Source of the DNA: a virus
Lineage: Duplodnaviria > Heunggongvirae > Uroviricota > Caudoviricetes
Virus record (IMG/VR): IMGVR_UViG_2597489893_000006
Coordinates: 1 to 18,357 of that record
DNA length: 18,357 nt
Direction: 5' to 3' (one strand)
The translations under genes were made by a program, and so were the position numbers. The stretch's first letter is position 1. Each line of letters starts with the position of its first letter. Shown here piece after piece: positions 3,252 to 16,535 of the stretch. Under the pieces are notes generated by a model. It saw nothing but the letters and a program-made list of their open reading frames with translations. It was not told the origin of the DNA and did not search any database.

Positions 3252-4103
3252 ATGATAAATTATGTCTACGGCGAACAACTGTACCAGGAGTTCGTCAGCT
3301 TCAGGGATCTCTTTCTAAAAAAAGCTGTTGCACGCGCCCAACACGTTGATGCCGCCAGCGACGGTCGTCCTGTTCGCCCGGTTGTCGTTCTGCCGTTCAA
3401 AGAAACGGACAGCATTCAGGCTGAAATTGATAAATGGACTTTAATGGCGCGGGAACTGGAACAGTACCCAGACCTCAATATCCCAAAGACTATTTTATAT
3501 CCAGTGCCTAACATCCTTCGCGGTGTGCGTAAGGTTACAACTTATCAGACAGAAGCTGTGAACAGCGTCAACATGACCGCTGGCCGCATTATTCATCTGA
3601 TTGATAAGGACATTCGCATCCAGAAAAGCGCGGGGATCAATGAGCACAGTGCGAAATACATAGAGAACCTGGAAGCAACAAAAGAGCTAATGAAGCAGTA
3701 CCCGGAGGATGAAAAATTCCGTATGCGTGTACACGGCTTTAGCGAAACAATGTTGCGCGTCCATTACATTTCCAGTAGCCCTAACTACAATGATGGTAAA
3801 TCAGTTAGTTACCATGTGCCGCTGTGTGGTGTGTTTATCTGCGATGAAACTCTCCGTGATGGAATCATCATCAACGGTGAATTCGAGAAAGCAAAATTTA
3901 GCCTTTATGACTCTATAGAACCGATCATCTGCGACCGCTGGCCGCAGGCAAAAATATATCGCCTGGCAGATATTGAAAATGTAAAAAAACAAATTGCCAT
4001 CACTCGCGAAGAGAAAAAGGTCAAATCAGCCGCATCAGTTACGCGCAGCCGTAAAACTAAGAAGGGGCAGCCAGTAAACAGCAACCCCGAAAGCGCGCAA
4101 TAG
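3252..4103 (+). CDS. c1: C1 repressor of lysis (primary immunity repressor)
   Basis: 283-aa ORF with strong GGAGGAGG Shine-Dalgarno; length, position next to coi and the operator sites fit P1 C1. Confidence 0.93.
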   Translation: MINYVYGEQLYQEFVSFRDLFLKKAVARAQHVDAASDGRPVRPVVVLPFKETDSIQAEIDKWTLMARELEQYPDLNIPKTILYPVPNILRGVRKVTTYQTEAVNSVNMTAGRIIHLIDKDIRIQKSAGINEHSAKYIENLEATKELMKQYPEDEKFRMRVHGFSETMLRVHYISSSPNYNDGKSVSYHVPLCGVFICDETLRDGIIINGEFEKAKFSLYDSIEPIICDRWPQAKIYRLADIENVKKQIAITREEKKVKSAASVTRSRKTKKGQPVNSNPESAQ

Positions 4104-4128
4104 TTTTCCATCCGGCATGGTCAAATTG

Positions 4129-5613
4129 TTATTCATTAAGCCATGCCAGAGCTTCATCAACCTGCGCTTCGTCTTCGACGCTAAGCACTTCATCTTGGGG
4201 AACATAGTTCGCCAACATAGCGAAACAATATGTATCCCAATGGTCCGGTGAGTGCAGGTTGAGTTTTTTCTTCATATCTTCCTTTGACATCACCTTCCAT
4301 TGACCTGCGGAATTTATCCCTACCGGTATCTTTGATGCTTCCTCTATAGTCGCAGCCCCCTTATCAAGCCGCATACGCCCTGATTTTACAGCTTCTGCCG
4401 CCTGAATATTCGCGAAAGCGCGCATATCGAAATAAAGGCTTTTATCTTCACGGCTGTGCATCTTTTTACCCCAGCGGATACGCTGGACGGTAATGCCATA
4501 GCGTTCGTACATTAGATCAGCCGTCGATTTCCCCAAGCCATCGCCATCAATAGCTATGGTTATGTTCGGGAACCGTTCTGGGTTACATTCTGCGAAAATC
4601 TTGGCGGCTAACTGCGTTTCTGTAACGTCTGTGTATTCCAGCATACGATAGTTGATTACACGGCGTTTATTTCGCTGGCCGGACACCATCATGATATTAA
4701 TAACGGACTTATCTCGTCCTGTGCCACCAGCAACGTCAACACATGCAACCCAGCCCCATCCTTTGGCAATCTTGACCTTTCGCCGCGTCGCCCGCTCAAC
4801 CTCATCACGACCAAGAAGAAAGCCATCTTGAGATTTGGGAAATTCACCACGTACTTTGATCATGTACATGGGGTTATCACGACCGCCATACTCCGCAAGT
4901 TTTGCTCGTATAAATTTTGCATCTACAAGCGGAGATTCTTCACTATTCAGTATTATCGCAGTAAACAATCCATCAGGATTTCCCGGGCGAATAGCTAGTC
5001 TGTGGTGTGAATCGTAGAAATAGCCTGAAGGTCGCGTAGGCTGGGAAAGAAGCAGAATACGGTTATCCTTACCGGTCAGCGCACCTGTTATCACACTGAA
5101 TGCTTTATCACTCACACCCGACGCTTCGTCGATGATATACAAGAGATGATCGGCGTGTTCACCAGCCAACGCCTCCTCATTTCCGGGGCGACAGGACTTT
5201 ATCAATATTGTCCAAACACCCTTGCCAGTCACCTCAAAAAAAGACGTTTCTGTAAGAATGAAATACTTCGACAACCACGGGAATCTGCTAACAGCAGTAG
5301 CCCAATTGCTCTTTATGTATTTGAAAATACCATCAAGGACTTGCTGTCTTTTGTTAGCGACCAGAATGACGCGAGCGCCGGGGAAAAACATGATGAAGAG
5401 TATTGCAATGATACTCGTCATATCCGATTTACCAGTACCATGGCCGGAGGTCACACTTGTCCAACTGCCGTCCTGCTGCGTGGACTCAATGATCTCATCC
5501 TGCTGCCAGGTTGGTGTCTTCCCAAACAACACATCAGCGGCCGCAATCCAGTCATAACGATATAGCGCCACAAGCTCGCGCCAACGTGGGTCCGTTACGC
5601 AACTTCTGGCCAT
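4129..5613 (-). CDS. pacB: PacB, terminase large subunit
   Basis: 494-aa ORF with a Walker-A-like SGHGTGKS motif; start overlaps the pacA stop (TAATG); convergent with c1. Confidence 0.9.
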
Positions 5614-9069: not shown

Positions 9070-9290
9070 TATCGGTTAACCAGTTCCTTGTTGGTGGAGT
9101 CCAGGGTGTCAAACAGGGATGCAAATTCAGCATCCAGCGCCGCTTTTTTGTAGGCTTCGAAAGTAGCCTTGCTGACAATTACTGCTGGCTCACGACCTCT
9201 GCGGGTGATTTCAACCTCTTCCCCGGCTTCAACATTGTTGAGCACTTCAGAAAGGTTGCCGCGCGCGGTACGGAAGTTAATGGATTGCAT
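9069..9290 (-). CDS. phd: Phd antitoxin
   Basis: 73 aa from ATG at 9290 ([49 protein letters not shown]...), recognisable as P1 Phd. The ORF track's longer form starts at an upstream GTG. Confidence 0.95.
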
Positions 9291-9293
9291 AAA

Positions 9294-9330
9294 CACCTCG
9301 TGTACTCGTTATGTGTACACAATTATAAAC
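9294..9330 (-). promoter_or_regulatory. phd-doc promoter/operator: perfect TATAAT, palindrome TGTGTACACA and half-site GAGTACAC, then GAGGTG Shine-Dalgarno
   Basis: Minus strand reads TTTATAATTGTGTACACATAACGAGTACACGAGGTGTTTATG. Phd is known to autoregulate through palindromic operator sites in this promoter. Confidence 0.6.
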
Positions 9331-9466
9331 TTCACAGGCATAAAGCACCAGCACTTTGCGGCTTAACAAACCTCTAGGCAGGTCATTCGTAGCCTAATGT
9401 CCGAACTGCTAAAGCATCCAAGTTGCTGTAGAATCACCGCCAATTACATAAGCCTGAAATAAGTGG

Positions 9467-10501
9467 ATGAAAATGACAAGTATTCAACAACGTGCAGAGC
9501 TTCATCGTCAAATCTGGCAAATTGCTAACGATGTCAGGGGTTCGGTCGATGGATGGGATTTTAAGCAATACGTTCTGGGCGCACTTTTCTACCGTTTTAT
9601 CAGCGAAAATTTTTCCAGTTATATTGAAGCCGGTGATGACAGTATCTGTTATGCGAAACTGGATGACAGCGTAATTACTGATGACATTAAAGACGATGCC
9701 ATCAAAACTAAAGGCTACTTCATCTACCCCAGTCAGCTTTTCTGCAACGTAGCTGCGAAAGCAAATACCAATGACAGACTGAACGCAGATTTAAACAGCA
9801 TCTTCGTTGCTATCGAAAGTTCTGCTTACGGCTACCCTTCAGAAGCAGACATCAAAGGTTTGTTTGCTGATTTCGATACCACCAGTAACCGCCTGGGTAA
9901 CACCGTTAAAGATAAAAATGCCCGCCTGGCTGCGGTTCTGAAAGGGGTTGAAGGGTTAAAACTTGGTGACTTCAACGAACATCAGATTGACCTGTTCGGT
10001 GATGCCTATGAGTTCCTGATTTCTAACTATGCGGCAAATGCCGGTAAGTCAGGCGGTGAGTTCTTTACACCGCAGCACGTCTCCAAGCTGATTGCACAAC
10101 TGGCTATGCACGGGCAGACCAACGTTAACAAAATCTACGACCCGGCAGCGGGTTCCGGCTCACTGTTGTTGCAGGCTAAAAAGCAGTTTGATAACCATAT
10201 CATCGAAGAAGGCTTTTTTGGTCAGGAAATCAACCATACAACCTATAACCTGGCACGTATGAACATGTTTTTGCACAACATCAACTACGACAAGTTTGAT
10301 ATCAAGCTGGGTAATACACTGACTGAGCCACACTTCAGAGATGAAAAACCGTTTGATGCCATCGTTTCTAACCCGCCGTATTCGGTGAAATGGATTGGCA
10401 GCGATGACCCGACGCTGATTAACGATGAACGTTTTGCCCCGGCTGGCGTCCTGGCCCCCAAATCCAAAGCTGACTTTGCGTTTGTACTACATGCGCTGAA
10501 C
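9467..10501 (+). pseudogene. hsdM: hsdM (Type IC methyltransferase), 5' fragment of 345 codons, truncated by IS903
   Basis: Translation carries the AdoMet motif [10 protein letters not shown] and the N6-adenine motif NPPY. The reading frame runs into the IS903 inverted repeat and stops after 4 IS-encoded codons (GFVE-stop). Confidence 0.9.
10493..10501. repeat. IS903 target-site duplication, left copy (GCGCTGAAC)
   Basis: Identical 9-mer found at 11559-11567 directly flanking the other inverted repeat. Confidence 0.9.
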
Positions 10502-11558
10502 GGCTTTGTTGAATAAATCAGATTTCGGGTAAGTCTCCCCCGTAGCGGGTTGTGTTTTCAGGCAATACGCACGCTTTCAGGCATACCTGCTTTCGTCATT
10601 TTGTTCAGCGCTCGTACCAGGGCCATAGCCTCTGCAACCTGACCATCGTAGTCACGCAGTGTCAGTGAACCCCCGAACAGCTGTTTTACCCGGTACATCG
10701 CCGTTTCCGCTATCGAGCGACGGTTGTAATCTGTTGTCCATTTCCACCGCGCATTACTCCCGGTCATTCGCTGATTAGCCACTGCACGGTTACGGTCTGC
10801 ATATTCACCGGGCCAGTAACCCGCACCTTTTCGGGGTGGGATAAGCGCGCTGATTTTCTTACGCCGCAGTTCATCGTGACATAGCCGGGTATCGTAAGCG
10901 CCATCGGCGGCGGCTGACCTGATTTTCCGGTGGGTTTGCCGGATTAACCCGGGGAAGGCCTCTGAGTCCGTAACGTTGTTCAGCGACAGGTCAGCGCAGA
11001 TGATTTCATGTGTTTTACTGTCAACGGCGAGATGCAGCTTACGCCAGATACGGCGGCGTTCCTGGCCATGCTTTTTGACTTTCCACTCGCCTTCACCGAA
11101 GACCTTCAGCCCGGTGGAATCAATTACCAGGTGTGCGATTTCACCCCGGGTGGGCGTTTTGAAACTGACATTAACCGACTTTGCCCGCCTGCTGACACAG
11201 CTGTAATCCGGGCAGCGTAGCGGAACGTTCATCAGAGAAAAAATGGAATCAATAAAGCCCTGCGCAGCGCGCAGGGTCAGCCTGAATACGCGTTTAATGA
11301 CCAGCACAGTCGTGATGGCAAGGTCAGAATAGCGCTGAGGTCTGCCTCGTGAAGAAGGTGTTGCTGACTCATACCAGGCCTGAATAGCTTCATCATCCAG
11401 CCAGAAAGTTATGGAGCCACGGTTGATGAGGGCTTTATTGTAGGTGGGCCAGTTGGTGATTTTGAACTTTTGCTTTGCCACGGAACGGTCTGCGTTGTCG
11501 GGAAGATACGTGATCTGATCCTTCAACTCAGCAAAAGTTCGATTTATTCAACAAAGCC
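10502..11558 (-). mobile_element. IS903 (IS5 family, IS903 group), complete 1057-bp copy
   Basis: Perfect 18-bp terminal inverted repeats GGCTTTGTTGAATAAATC (10502-10519) and GATTTATTCAACAAAGCC (11541-11558); length 1057 bp; 9-bp direct duplication on both sides; transposase ORF inside. Confidence 0.95.
10558..11481 (-). CDS. IS903 transposase (DDE), 307 aa from a GTG start
   Basis: Translation ...AKQKFKITNWPTYNKALINRGSITFWLDDEAIQAWYE... matches IS903/IS102 transposase as I recall it. The ORF track's 322-aa form begins at an upstream TTG. Confidence 0.88.
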   Translation of the reverse strand: MAKQKFKITNWPTYNKALINRGSITFWLDDEAIQAWYESATPSSRGRPQRYSDLAITTVLVIKRVFRLTLRAAQGFIDSIFSLMNVPLRCPDYSCVSRRAKSVNVSFKTPTRGEIAHLVIDSTGLKVFGEGEWKVKKHGQERRRIWRKLHLAVDSKTHEIICADLSLNNVTDSEAFPGLIRQTHRKIRSAAADGAYDTRLCHDELRRKKISALIPPRKGAGYWPGEYADRNRAVANQRMTGSNARWKWTTDYNRRSIAETAMYRVKQLFGGSLTLRDYDGQVAEAMALVRALNKMTKAGMPESVRIA

Positions 11559-11567
11559 GCGCTGAAC
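11559..11567. repeat. IS903 target-site duplication, right copy (GCGCTGAAC)
   Basis: Identical to 10493-10501. Confidence 0.9.
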
Positions 11568-12095
11568 TATCTTTCGGCCAAAGGTCGTGCTGCGATTGTC
11601 TGCTTCCCGGGTATTTTTTACCGTGGCGGCGCGGAGCAGAAAATCCGTCAGTATCTGGTCGATAATAACTATGTCGAAACCGTGATTTCACTGGCACCGA
11701 ACCTGTTCTTTGGCACCACTATTGCTGTAAACATTCTGGTGCTGTCTAAACATAAAACGGATACCAAAGTTCAGTTTATTGATGCCAGCGAACTGTTCAA
11801 AAAAGAAACCAACAACAATATCCTGACCGATGCCCATATCGAACAGATTATGCAGGTATTTGCCAGCAAGGAAGATGTTGCTCATCTGGCGAAATCTGTT
11901 GCGTTTGAGACTGTTGTCGCGAATGACTATAACCTGTCGGTGAGCAGCTATGTGGAAGCGAAAGATAACCGCGAAATTATCGATATCGGTGAGCTGAATG
12001 CAGAGCTGAAAACCACGGTCAGCAAAATCGACCAGTTGCGTAAAGATATTGATGCAATTGTGGCTGAAATTGAAGGCTGCGAGGTGCAGAAATGA
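11559..12095 (+). pseudogene. hsdM: hsdM 3' fragment (C-terminal 175 codons plus the duplicated ALN codons)
   Basis: Frame continues from the duplicated GCG CTG AAC into [49 protein letters not shown]... Removing the IS and one duplication copy restores a 520-codon ORF (the 1066-bp insertion is a +1 frame shift, which matches the observed frames). Confidence 0.9.
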
Positions 12096-13297
12096 GCGAG
12101 ATGAGTTATCTGGAAAAATTGCTGGATGGGGTTGAGGTTGAGTGGAAGACACTTGGGCAAACTTGCAAAATTGAAACAGGAAAGCTTAATGCGAATGCGG
12201 CTGTTGATGATGGAGAGTATATGTTCTTCACGACAGCCAAAGAGACAAGCAAAATTGATAAATTCCGCTGGGATACAGAGGCATTGCTGATTGCAGGCAA
12301 TGCGAATGTTGGTGAGGTGAAGCATTACATCGGCAAGTTTGAGGCTTATCAGCGCACCTATGTTCTGACAAATTTCGACGAAAATGTAAGTGTTAGATTT
12401 TTGTATTTTGTGCTTAGCCATAGCCTGAAGAAATATCTCGAGGAAAGAACAAATAGCGCGGCAATGACATATATCGTGCTATCAACCTTAGAGAATTTCC
12501 CTATCCCCATCCCCTGCCCGGATAATCCGGAAAAATCCCTTGCCATCCAGTCTGAAATCGTTCGGATTCTGGATAAATTTACTGCACTTACCGCTGAGCT
12601 TACCGCTGAGCTTAACATGCGTAAAAAACAGTACAACTACTATCGCGACCAGTTGTTGAGTTTTAAAGATGGTGAGGTTGAGTGGAAGACTTTGGGGGAA
12701 ATTGGAGATTTTACATATGGATATGCAGCCAAAGCCATGGATTCAGGAGATGCCCGTTTCGTGAGAATTACTGACATAAATAAAGACGGGAAGCTATCGA
12801 AAGAAAACCCAATGTACGTTGAATTAAATGAGGAAAATGAGAAATATACCTTAGACAAAAATGATTTACTCATGGCAAGAACTGGGGCAACCTTTGGTAA
12901 AACAATGATTTTTGAAGAAGATTATCCAGCAGTATACGCTGGTTTTTTAATAAAGTTGAACCTAAATAAAACGATTATTAATGCCAAATATTACTGGCAC
13001 TTTGCACAAAGTGATTTTTTTTGGGAACAGGCTAATAAATTAGTATCTGGTGGTGGGCAACCACAGTTTAATGCTAATGCACTGAAACAAGTCAGAGTAC
13101 CTATTCCATACCCATCTCACCCTCAAAAATCTTTAGACGAACAGGGGCGTATTGTGGATATTCTGGATAAGTTTGATGCAATCGCAGCTTCCATCACCGA
13201 AGGTCTTCCGCGTGAAATCGAGTTGCGCCAGAAACAATACGAATACTACCGTGATTTACTGTTCAGTTTCCCGAAACCTGAAACTGCCAGTAATTAA
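12092..13297 (+). CDS. hsdS: HsdS, Type IC specificity subunit
   Basis: 401 aa; ATG overlaps the hsdM stop (ATGA). Conserved N-terminal, central and C-terminal regions with internal duplication (VEWKTLG twice; ILDKF twice) and a central TAELTAEL repeat; two variable target-recognition domains. Confidence 0.9.
12587..12610 (+). repeat. Two tandem copies of the 12-bp repeat CTTACCGCTGAG (encoding TAEL-TAEL) in the hsdS central conserved region
   Basis: Directly visible tandem repeat. In the EcoR124I/EcoR124II family the copy number (2 versus 3) sets the spacer length of the recognition sequence. Confidence 0.85.
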
Positions 13298-13418
13298 TTG
13301 ATCATTGCTACCGATCGGACCACCTTAACACCCGGTCAGTATATAGACTATTTTTTACGCGCCGGAAGTCACCATTACCCCCCTTCCGGCCCTTGCCAGA
13401 CGGCACAAAGGATGCGCT

Positions 13419-16400
13419 ATGACTCATCAGACACACACCATTGCTGAATCCAATAACTTTATCGTTCTTGATAAGTACATCAAAGCTGAGCCAACAGGCG
13501 ACAGCTACCAGAGCGAATCGGACCTGGAACGTGAACTGATTCAGGACCTGCAAAATCAGGGTTATGAATTTATTTCCGTAAAATCACAGTCGGCAATGCT
13601 GTCCAATGTTCGGGAACAGCTTCAGAGCCTCAATGGTGTGATGTTTAATGACAGCGAGTGGCGGCGCTTCACGGAGCAGTATCTGGACAACCCCAGCGAT
13701 GGTATTCTGGATAAAACCCGTAAAATCCATATCGACTATATCTGCGACTTTATTTTTGATGACGGGCGACTTGAGAACATCTATTTGATAGATAAAAAGA
13801 ATCTCATGCGCAATAAGGTGCAGATTATCCAGCAGTTTGAACAGACGGGTTCTCATGCTAACCGTTATGACGTCACGATCCTGGTTAATGGTTTACCGCT
13901 GGTGCAAATCGAACTAAAAAAACGCGGGGTGGCGATTCGTGAGGCTTTCAACCAGATACATCGTTACAGTAAAGAGAGTTTTAACAGCGAAAATTCCCTG
14001 TTTAAGTATCTGCAACTGTTTGTCATTTCTAACGGCACCGATACCCGTTATTTTGCCAACACGACAAAGCGCGATAAAAACAGTTTTGACTTCACCATGA
14101 ATTGGGCGAAATCAGACAACACGCTGATTAAAGACCTCAAAGACTTTACCGCTACCTTTTTCCAGAAACATACTCTGCTGAATGTTCTGGTGAACTACAG
14201 CGTTTTTGACAGTAGTCAGACGCTACTGGTGATGCGACCGTACCAGATTGCCGCCACCGAGCGCATTCTGTGGAAAATTAAGAGTTCCTTTACAGCGAAG
14301 AACTGGTCAAAACCGGAAAGCGGTGGGTATATCTGGCACACTACCGGTTCTGGTAAAACCCTCACCAGCTTTAAAGCCGCGCGTCTGGCAACAGAGCTGG
14401 ACTTTATTGATAAAGTCTTCTTTGTGGTCGACAGGAAAGACCTCGATTACCAGACCATGAAGGAATATCAGCGTTTTTCGCCAGACAGCGTCAACGGCTC
14501 GGAAAATACCGCAGGCCTTAAACGAAATCTGGATAAGGACGATAACAAAATTATCGTCACTACTATTCAGAAACTCAATAACCTGATGAAAGCAGAAAGC
14601 GACCTGCCTGTATATAATCAGCAAGTGGTGTTTATATTTGATGAATGCCACCGCAGCCAGTTTGGAGAAGCGCAGAAAAACCTGAAGAAGAAATTCAAAC
14701 GCTATTATCAGTTTGGTTTTACCGGCACACCTATTTTCCCGGAAAACGCCTTAGGCTCAGAAACGACCGCCAGCGTATTTGGTCGTGAATTGCATTCGTA
14801 TGTAATTACCGATGCGATTCGTGATGAAAAAGTGCTCAAATTCAAGGTGGACTACAACGATGTGCGGCCACAGTTTAAGTCTTTAGAGACAGAAACTGAC
14901 GAGAAAAAACTAAGTGCGGCTGAAAATCAGCAGGCGTTTCTTCATCCCATGCGTATACAGGAAATTACGCAATATATTCTGAATAACTTCCGCCAGAAGA
15001 CGCACCGTACTTTCCCTGGCGCAAAAGGTTTTAATGCTATGTTGGCAGTGAGCAGCGTGGATGCTGCAAAAGCCTATTACGCGGCGTTTAAACGGTTACA
15101 AGAGGAAGCCGCTAATAAATCTGCAACTTATAAACCGCTGCGTGTTGCGACAATCTTCTCCTTTGCCGCTAATGAAGAACAAAATGCCATTGGTGAAATT
15201 TCCGATGAAACTTTTGATACCAGCGCAATGGACAGCAGTGCTAAAGAGTTTCTTGACGCTGCAATTCGTGAGTATAACAGCTATTTTAAAACTAACTTCA
15301 GCACCGACGGTAACGGTTTTCAGAACTACTATCGCGATTTAGCCCAACGGGTTAAAAATCAGGATATCGATCTGTTAATTGTCGTTGGGATGTTTTTAAC
15401 CGGCTTCGACGCTCCAACATTGAACACGCTATTCGTCGATAAAAACTTGCGTTTTCACGGCCTGATGCAGGCATTTTCCCGCACCAACCGCATTTATAAC
15501 GCCACTAAAACCTTCGGTAACATTGTCACTTTTCGGGATCTGGAACGCTCAACCATTGATGCCATAACGCTGTTTGGTGATAAAAATACCAAAAATGTGG
15601 TGTTAGAAAAGAGTTATGCAGAGTATATGGAAGGTTTTACTGATGCTGCCACCGGTGAAGCCAAACGCGGCTTTATGGCAGTAGTTTCAGAACTGGAACA
15701 ACGGTTCCCTGACCCTGCCAGTATTGAAAGTGAAAAAGAGAAGAAAGACTTCGTTAAACTGTTTGGCGAATACCTGCGTGCCGAGAACATCCTGCAAAAC
15801 TATGATGAATTTGCCACGCTAAAAGCCCTGCAACAAATCGATCTTAGCGATCCTGTTGCGGTAGAAAAATTCAAAGCAGAACATTATGTGGATGATGAAA
15901 AGTTCGCTGAATTGCAAACAATTCGTCTCCCTGCTGATCGCAAGATTCAGGATTATCGTTCTGCCTATAACGATATTCGCGACTGGCAGCGCCGTGAGAA
16001 AGAAGCTGAGAAAAAAGAGAAATCAACCACTGACTGGGATGACGTGGTTTTTGAGGTCGATTTGCTGAAGTCTCAGGAAATAAACCTGGATTATATCCTT
16101 GGACTGATTTTCGAACACAACAGACAAAATAAAGGCAAGGGCGAAATGATCGAAGAGGTCAAACGCTTAATTCGTTCAAGCCTGGGGAACCGGGCGAAAG
16201 AGGGCCTGGTGGTCGATTTTATTCAGCAAACGAACCTGGATGATTTACCAGACAAAGCCAGTATCATTGAGGCATTCTTTACGTTTGCTCAACGCGAACA
16301 GCAACGTGAAGCAGAAGCATTGATAAAAGAAGAAAATCTCAATGAAGATGCAGCAAAACGCTATATTCGCACGTCTTTAAAACGCGAATACGCCACCGAA

Positions 16401-16535
16401 AATGGCACAGAATTAAACGAAACATTACCAAAACTTAGTCCGTTGAATCCGCAATATAAAACGAAAAAACAGGCAGTTTTCCAGAAAATCGTCTCGTTTA
16501 TTGAGAAGTTTAAAGGCGTAGGCGGAAAAATATAG
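13419..16535 (+). CDS. hsdR: HsdR, Type IC restriction endonuclease/translocase subunit
   Basis: 1038 aa with an N-terminal PD-(D/E)xK-like nuclease motif (D...IELKK), Walker A TGSGKT and a DECH box ([10 protein letters not shown]); length equals EcoR124I HsdR. Confidence 0.93.

Follow-up and report, generated by a model that had tools for sequence, protein, structure and literature searches.

The window, by which we mean the entire 18,357-bp stretch of DNA that was analyzed, carries a type I restriction-modification locus in the order hsdM-hsdS-hsdR. The hsdM gene is interrupted by an insertion sequence, and the hsdS gene combines a conserved framework with two target-recognition cassettes (TRD1 and TRD2). 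The features of the locus are listed below by coordinates and strand.

9473..10501, + strand: 5′ part of hsdM, codons 1–343 of 518, identical (100%) to nt 1–1029 of the p1-T-HYM1 hsdM
10493..10501, unstranded: left 9-bp target-site duplication GCGCTGAAC, hsdM nt 1021–1029, repeated on both sides of the insertion
10502..11558, − strand: IS903B (IS5 family), 1057 bp, with 18-bp terminal inverted repeats GGCTTTGTTGAATAAATC
10558–11526, − strand: transposase ORF of IS903B (Pfam DDE_Tnp_1_5 and DDE_Tnp_1)
11559..11567, unstranded: right 9-bp target-site duplication GCGCTGAAC
11559..12095, + strand: 3′ part of hsdM, nt 1021–1557 of the intact gene, 100% identical to p1-T-HYM1 (Pfam N6_Mtase positions 210–310)
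12092..13297, + strand: hsdS, ATG to TAA, 401 codons and a stop, with Methylase_S stretches and a PADLOC match
12092..12145, + strand: N-terminal conserved region of HsdS, residues 1–18, 18/18 identical to EcoR124 HsdS (100%)
12146..12499, + strand: TRD1, the first target-recognition cassette, residues 19–136, 18% identity to EcoR124 TRD1
12500..12703, + strand: central conserved region (first coiled-coil helix and linker), residues 137–204, about 96% identity to EcoR124 HsdS
12590..12613, + strand: two tandem copies of ACCGCTGAGCTT, encoding TAEL TAEL, residues 167–174
12704..13120, + strand: TRD2, the second target-recognition cassette, AT-rich, residues 205–343, 18.5% identity to EcoR124
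13121..13294, + strand: C-terminal conserved region (linker PQKSLDEQ and second coiled-coil helix), residues 344–401, 78% identity to EcoR124 HsdS
13419..16535, + strand: hsdR, intact, 1038 aa (Pfam HSDR_N, SWI2_SNF2, T1R_D3-like and EcoR124_C)

HsdS proteins contain two globular TRDs, each responsible for one of the two halves of a bipartite DNA target, and two conserved helices that form an antiparallel coiled coil and keep the TRDs apart. The 401-aa product of hsdS, which is identical to protein WP_001293319.1, contains two Pfam Methylase_S stretches and matches the PADLOC Specificity_I model over its full length (E = 1e-124). When compared to all PDB chains, its sole significant match is 7bst_A, the EcoR124 HsdS (phmmer E = 1e-74), in an alignment that spans residues 1–401 versus 1–404. 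The fold of HsdS is settled because of this sequence identity to a solved HsdS. We computed identity to EcoR124 HsdS region by region, using 7bst_A as the reference. The preliminary description had proposed an EcoR124-family framework with two variable domains unlike those of EcoR124I, and both parts agree with the computed values (100%, about 96% and 78% in the conserved regions; 18% in TRD1 and 18.5% in TRD2). As both TRDs are unrelated to their EcoR124I counterparts, the half-sites must differ.

The protein thus has the three conserved regions, two variable TRDs and TAEL repeat (2 copies) of a type IC HsdS, and its gene is linked to EcoR124-family hsdM and hsdR genes in the same order as in EcoR124I. 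Both partner subunits match their EcoR124 counterparts over their full lengths and with very high scores: phmmer assigns 2277 bits to HsdR against EcoR124 HsdR (PDB 2w00_A; residues 1–1038 of both), and the repaired HsdM reaches 1155 bits against 7bst_D (over 518 aa). Originally, membership of the type IC family was decided by subunit complementation with EcoR124I or EcoDXXI. Given these full-length, high-scoring HsdM and HsdR matches, complementation of this system with EcoR124 subunits would be expected to succeed.

The copies of ACCGCTGAGCTT start at 12590 and 12602, with no further copy within the 18,357-bp window, and TRF finds 2.3 copies (100% match) at 12587–12614. These two exact tandem units are the two 12-bp TAEL repeats that had been noticed before our analysis, and from which a short-spacer class had been proposed. 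That proposal is supported by inference from EcoR124I, EcoR124II and the EcoR124I/EcoDXXI hybrids (PMC3874165). EcoR124I, with two TAEL repeats, recognizes GAA N6 RTCG and has its methylated adenines 7 nt apart, while in EcoR124II, EcoDXXI and EcoprrI, with three TAEL repeats, the methylated adenines are 8 nt apart (PMC3874165; PMC12707154). In hybrids of EcoR124I and EcoDXXI, the spacer tracked the repeat number irrespective of the TRDs (PMC3874165; cf. PMC12707154, Table 1 footnote). The present allele has a framework in common with EcoR124II, EcoDXXI and EcoprrI, as well as their mode of variation by TRD exchange and TAEL copy number (PMC3874165), but it differs from them in having two repeats rather than three.

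The second conserved helix, which ends in YYRDLLFSF, aligns without gaps to the EcoR124I helix and is equal to it in length. Because two TAEL repeats are combined with a second helix of EcoR124I length, we predict that the recognition site is bipartite and asymmetric and that its two methylated adenines, one on each strand, lie 7 nt apart. An M2S1 methylase containing this HsdS would methylate both of these adenines, and the R2M2S1 complex would cleave unmethylated DNA following translocation. By analogy, the spacer would be N5–N7, where the number of N is set by the length of the half-sites. Unlike in EcoR124I, the loop or linker that follows TRD2 is 7 residues longer and lies outside the helix; this longer loop may conceivably affect the placement of the TRD. 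The loop after TRD2 resembles the loop after TRD1.

Repeat number and TRD identity were compared across 5,426 complete E. coli genomes. The TRD1/TRD2 pair is accompanied by two repeats in 50 of 50 E. coli records, and a synthetic three-repeat query retrieved no three-repeat version of this exact pair from the 5,426 genomes. The same query found TRD2 in three-repeat frameworks alongside other TRD1s.

Each TRD is also found apart from the other. TRD1 occurs at 99% identity or above in 61 of the 5,426 E. coli genomes (63 records), and intermediate forms were absent, since all matches were at least 99% identical even in blastn's sensitive mode. TRD2 occurs in 93 genomes (94–96 records), with matches of at least 95% identity except for two records at about 78%. 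The two TRDs occur as a pair in 50 records. As judged from these alignments, the TRDs are discrete cassettes and not diverging lineages. Alleles from other plasmids and from a phage compare to the window allele as follows.

FDAARGOS_1337 plasmid (WP_072647224.1): TRD1 different, TRD2 identical, 2 TAEL repeats, phd-hsdM context as here
pEC16-2 (WP_212639650.1): TRD1 the same with one substitution, TRD2 different, 3 TAEL repeats
K. pneumoniae 13765 p3 plasmid (WP_226330848.1): TRD1 the same, TRD2 different, 2 TAEL repeats
K. pneumoniae pKP1078-111K: TRD1 different, TRD2 81% identical, 2 TAEL repeats
Phage vB_EcoM-673R5: TRD1 different, TRD2 different, 3 TAEL repeats

The FDAARGOS_1337, pEC16-2 and 13765 p3 alleles have the framework and one TRD in common with the window allele, while their other TRD is unrelated. 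By comparing DNA sequences, we mapped the recombination breakpoints of TRD1 to about 12154 and 12502 (using one fetched allele) and those of TRD2 to about 12664–12688 and 13189 (using two fetched alleles). All mapped breakpoints fall within the conserved flanks. Internal direct repeats, pairing 12133–12161 with 12673–12701 (86%) and 12566–12595 with 13160–13189 (77%), supply homology for cassette recombination. Each TRD recombines as an independent cassette within its conserved flanks.

The sequences of natural alleles that have one TRD in common with the window allele, in frameworks with either two or three TAEL repeats, are proof of cassette shuffling. The domain swapping suspected in the preliminary description is thereby substantiated, by natural alleles that share TRD1 alone or TRD2 alone with the window gene. 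The domain limits given there (residues 20–145 and 200–345) also lie near those derived from the breakpoints (about 12154–12502 for TRD1 and 12689–13188 for TRD2).

We next consider base composition. TRD2 (12704–13120) has a GC content of 0.362, and 0.288 at third codon positions, compared to 0.451 and 0.486 for the hsdS framework and 0.443 and 0.489 for hsdM and hsdR combined. The difference at third positions is significant against both references (Fisher p = 0.0007 versus the framework and 5e-6 versus hsdM and hsdR). No other 417-bp stretch of the window is as low in GC as the one beginning at 12766, within TRD2. The AT-richness of TRD2 that had been reported by eye is thus reproduced by calculation, and the windowed GC comparison over hsdS that had been recommended as its check reveals the difference for TRD2. 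TRD1 (GC of 0.410, and 0.441 at third positions) does not differ significantly from the framework. All TRDs that we examined in the EcoR124 family have GC contents of 0.34–0.42, below the 0.44–0.48 of the framework; low TRD GC is a generic family trait and not special to the allele here.

That family-wide deficit bears on the origin of TRD2. Its low GC could arise from the abundance of K, N, I, F and Y among its amino acids, or from functional constraint, rather than from a foreign source, and both the uniformly low GC of the family's TRDs and the tendency of the TRD2 homologue to lie a few points below its flanks in most hosts agree with such an explanation. However, the deficit is greatest at third codon positions (0.288 versus 0.486–0.489), and homologues of TRD2 in Actinobacteria reach GC contents of 0.54–0.58, with 0.62–0.70 at third positions. 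Across hosts, the GC of TRD2 homologues ranges from 0.30 to 0.58, and from 0.15 to 0.70 at third positions, tracking the local genome. Since TRD GC follows the host in this way, the protein sequence leaves room for third-position GC values other than 0.29, and we consider a purely compositional or functional origin of the low GC unlikely. A third-position GC of 0.29 within an element of GC 0.47 fits the unameliorated import of TRD2 from a donor with about 35–42% GC, and this is the direction of TRD transfer that we infer. TRD2 would then still bear the base composition of its lower-GC donor. The host-tracking GC of the homologues supports the earlier suggestion that TRD2 was swapped in from a lower-GC background.

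The protein relatives of TRD2 occur in a wide range of phyla, in many cases as half-size HsdS. Its closest named relatives are found in Acinetobacter bouvetii, A. gerneri, a Marinomonas MAG, Alteromonas and Endozoicomonas (one genome per species), at 79–81% protein and 72–77% nucleotide identity, followed by Bacillus, Bacteroidales and Porphyromonas at 72–75%. With the best match to TRD2 at 80–81% protein identity (Acinetobacter and Marinomonas), the relatives yielded no donor for either TRD. The relatives of TRD1, at 82–87% identity, sit in type IC-like frameworks of unidentified bacteria.

The locus lies in a P1-like phage-plasmid (Punavirus) backbone, in which cre, c1, pacB, pacA, lpa, pdcB, doc/phd and pmgS are syntenic. 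P1-like plasmids of about 64–187 kb from E. coli, Klebsiella and Salmonella cover 94–100% of the window at 96–99% identity, P1 and P7 themselves cover about 47%, and Punavirus phages match the backbone. In annotated relatives, the gene order is cre, c1, pacB, pacA, lpa, pdcB, pdcA, doc, phd, hsdM, hsdS, hsdR, 3′-phosphatase and pmgS, so that the hsd locus is placed between the phd-doc genes and the 3′-phosphatase/pmgS genes. P1-like phage-plasmids have eight variable regions, to which this hsd site belongs (PMC9603915). Enterobacterial type IC hsd loci flanked by P1 DNA were described in 1997 (Tyndall et al., Mol Microbiol 23:729, as cited in PMC12707154). Rfam and tRNA scans of the window returned no matches.

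The allele itself is widespread. The 1206-bp hsdS is present at 100% identity in 50 E. coli records from 48 of the 5,426 complete genomes and in 27 PLSDB plasmids, including those of Klebsiella, Salmonella and E. fergusonii, and the exact protein occurs on at least 1000 contigs of a 15-billion-protein collection, always under generic names. WP_001293319.1 also occurs in islands of the chromosome, where its neighbors are a YeeP-like GTPase, Ag43 and an antirestriction gene, with IS1 coming next. The identical system in pMCR_SCKP-LL83 was called 'unnamed' in 2018 (PMC5786510); its hsdS is 100% identical over 1206 nt and its neighbors are likewise doc and 3′-phosphatase/pmgS, but its hsdM is intact (1557 bp), where the window copy is interrupted by IS903B. 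The allele is common and already catalogued; its family is a textbook one, and its genomic setting is known.

We searched for its recognition sequence by several routes. Searching PDB sequences with each TRD alone returned no solved relative and only spurious matches (MetQ and an exonuclease). Among plasmids, the next-best relative of TRD1 is 50% identical (Acinetobacter), and TRD1 has about 32% identity to a TRD of a plasmid HsdS annotated as EcoprrI. A full-text literature search for WP_001293319 found no paper naming the accession, and no recognition motif for the allele was found in the searchable literature on P1-like elements and on E. coli and Klebsiella type I methylomes. As motif sources, an ST101 methylome preprint and an Aeromonas paper treat other systems only. 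A lead to NgoAV, through a half-size HsdS of Neisseria mucosa that is 69% identical to TRD2, was dropped: LEAT repeats are absent, orthology was not demonstrated and the half-site was not transferred. An alignment of half-size homologues placed the homologues of TRD1 onto the TRD2 half and was set aside.

Against the likely uncharacterized specificity proposed in the preliminary description, there is almost an even chance that the specificity has already been characterized, with a REBASE motif from long-read methylomes for this HsdS or for its TRDs in other combinations. The abundance of the exact protein speaks for this, as the allele sits in dozens of complete genomes, which are often long-read, and an FDA-ARGOS strain carries TRD2, as does, at about 98–99% identity, an NCTC strain. 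Genomes from FDA-ARGOS and NCTC are often accompanied by methylome data. Against it, the protein accession is named nowhere in the searchable literature, the methylome literature that we searched does not cover the allele and the 2018 description left the system unnamed (PMC5786510). With somewhat less than even odds, the TRD1/TRD2 pair may specify a recognition sequence absent from REBASE. If so, a very common P1-borne restriction barrier among E. coli and Klebsiella from livestock and the clinic would have a target not yet catalogued. The allele rides on many P1-like phage-plasmids with mcr-1, blaCTX-M and other resistance genes, and knowledge of the target would help to predict the DNA restricted by their hosts. 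In that case, four methylomes from the natural allele series (TRD1 kept with TRD2 changed, TRD2 kept with TRD1 changed, and two versus three TAEL repeats) would reveal both half-sites together with the TAEL spacing rule.

Beyond such bookkeeping, the significance of the allele is small. TRD swapping and changes in TAEL copy number are the textbook routes to new type IC specificities. The link of type IC loci to P1 was already known in 1997.

In the window copy, and unlike in EcoR124I, hsdM is interrupted by IS903B. The insert, whose ends read GGCTTTGTTGAATAAATC and GATTTATTCAACAAAGCC, has the 1057-bp length, 18-bp inverted repeats, 9-bp duplication and DDE transposase of IS903B, and records that match it at about 99% identity are annotated as 'IS5-like element IS903B family transposase'. 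The 5′ part of hsdM encodes Pfam HsdM_N and N6_Mtase positions 2–171 of 311. The truncated HsdM retains the AdoMet motif DPAAGSG and the catalytic NPPY (residues 300–303), and its reading frame ends 4 codons into IS903B with the loss of the C-terminal 175 residues, a third of the protein. The intact hsdM of p1-T-HYM1 is 1557 bp. Compared to the p1-T-HYM1 copies, hsdS has 0 differences over 1206 nt and hsdR has 34 differences over 3117 nt. The insertion looks recent, because hsdS and both hsdM fragments are base-identical to p1-T-HYM1 and the hsdR ORF is intact.

Type I enzymes require the M2S1 complex for methylation as well as for restriction. With the insertion after codon 343 of 518, the operon lacks the intact hsdM of a functional type I restriction-modification system and should be inert, since M2S1 is needed for both activities; the window copy is expected neither to methylate nor to restrict. 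IS903B would probably also block transcription and translational coupling into hsdS. The TGA stop codon of hsdM overlaps the ATG of hsdS (ATGA), and a promoter and terminator scan of 9250–13450 gave counts equal to the shuffled expectation, with no above-chance promoter-like site between the insertion sequence and hsdS. Because of this overlap and the lack of an above-chance promoter in between, hsdS expression is probably reduced by polarity as well.

It is conceivable that HsdS is still in use, if the HsdM of a second type IC system in the cell acts in trans, so that this subunit contributes an extra specificity despite the broken hsdM in cis. Members of a type I family are recognized by their ability to exchange subunits (PMC12707154), some E. 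coli, such as AH25 and BS74R-D, carry both chromosomal and plasmid type IC loci, and hsdS and hsdR are intact in the window. But hsdS lies downstream of a 1-kb insertion sequence, its start codon overlaps the hsdM stop and promoter-like sites in between do not exceed chance, which makes its expression doubtful, and we regard use in trans as improbable. Taken together, the ORF at 12092..13297 very probably encodes the specificity subunit of a type IC system on a P1-like phage-plasmid, with TRDs that are swapped cassettes, in a system expected to be silent owing to IS903B in hsdM. The IS903B copy illustrates that such a barrier can be lost while hsdS stays unchanged and the hsdR reading frame open.

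P1-like elements and chromosomal islands exchange the hsdMSR module. We found the identical HsdS protein (WP_001293319.1) in an island of one E. coli chromosome (L087, 6004-13994) and a near-identical variant in that of another (L088, 6004-13994), in both cases together with hsdM and hsdR. Both chromosomal modules adjoin a gene for a YeeP-like GTPase and have an IS1 after them; in L087, genes for Ag43, RadC and antirestriction are also present upstream.

Rearrangement within hsdS itself is suggested by plasmid pEC16-2 (L004), which shares the first target-recognition domain (TRD1) of the window's allele and carries a different second one (TRD2). Its second TRD is flanked by duplicates of two framework stretches: the N-terminal conserved motif ahead of it (3551-3590, 97.5% to window 12106-12145) and the central conserved segment behind it (3933-4009, 96% to window 12503-12579). 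It seems that a cassette of the position-1 type was relocated to position 2. In the window's HsdS, the loop after TRD2 (13100-13145) is similar to the loop after TRD1 of the same protein and is 7 residues longer than its EcoR124I equivalent (PVPNINEQ), which suggests that the TRD2 cassette brought along a linker of either the position-1 type or the half-HsdS type.

The closest plasmid, p1-T-HYM1 (L001), shows no difference from the window in hsdS or in either hsdM fragment, whereas hsdR (window 13419-16535, L001 15993-19109) differs at 34 of 3117 nt. This contrast hints at a recombination boundary between hsdS and hsdR. The 121-bp gap ahead of hsdR contains a candidate regulatory feature:

13325-13354, promoter-like site (TTAACA, 18 nt, TATTTT), a consensus match only, in a region where such sites occur at chance counts

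Its placement would be expected if hsdR had its own promoter.

The interval between hsdS and hsdR is occupied in a Klebsiella relative with the window's TRD1, K. pneumoniae 13765 p3 (L006), by a gene for a 439-aa 'AAA family ATPase' (4127-5446); the window has no such gene. At the EcoprrI locus, prrC is likewise placed between hsdS and hsdR.

The interruption of hsdM, after codon 343, is defined by two features:

10502-11558, IS903B insertion
10493-10501 and 11559-11567, perfect 9-bp target duplication flanking IS903B

Because the hsdM sequence on either side is 100% identical to intact hsdM, the insertion is recent. When the IS903B junction was queried against the complete E. coli genome set, the top-ranked matches spanned it only in three joined pieces and never in a single unbroken alignment. 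Plasmid p1-T-HYM1 carries IS903B with blaCTX-M-27 near ref (L001 557-2435), an arrangement absent from the window; the same IS family is therefore active elsewhere on related elements.
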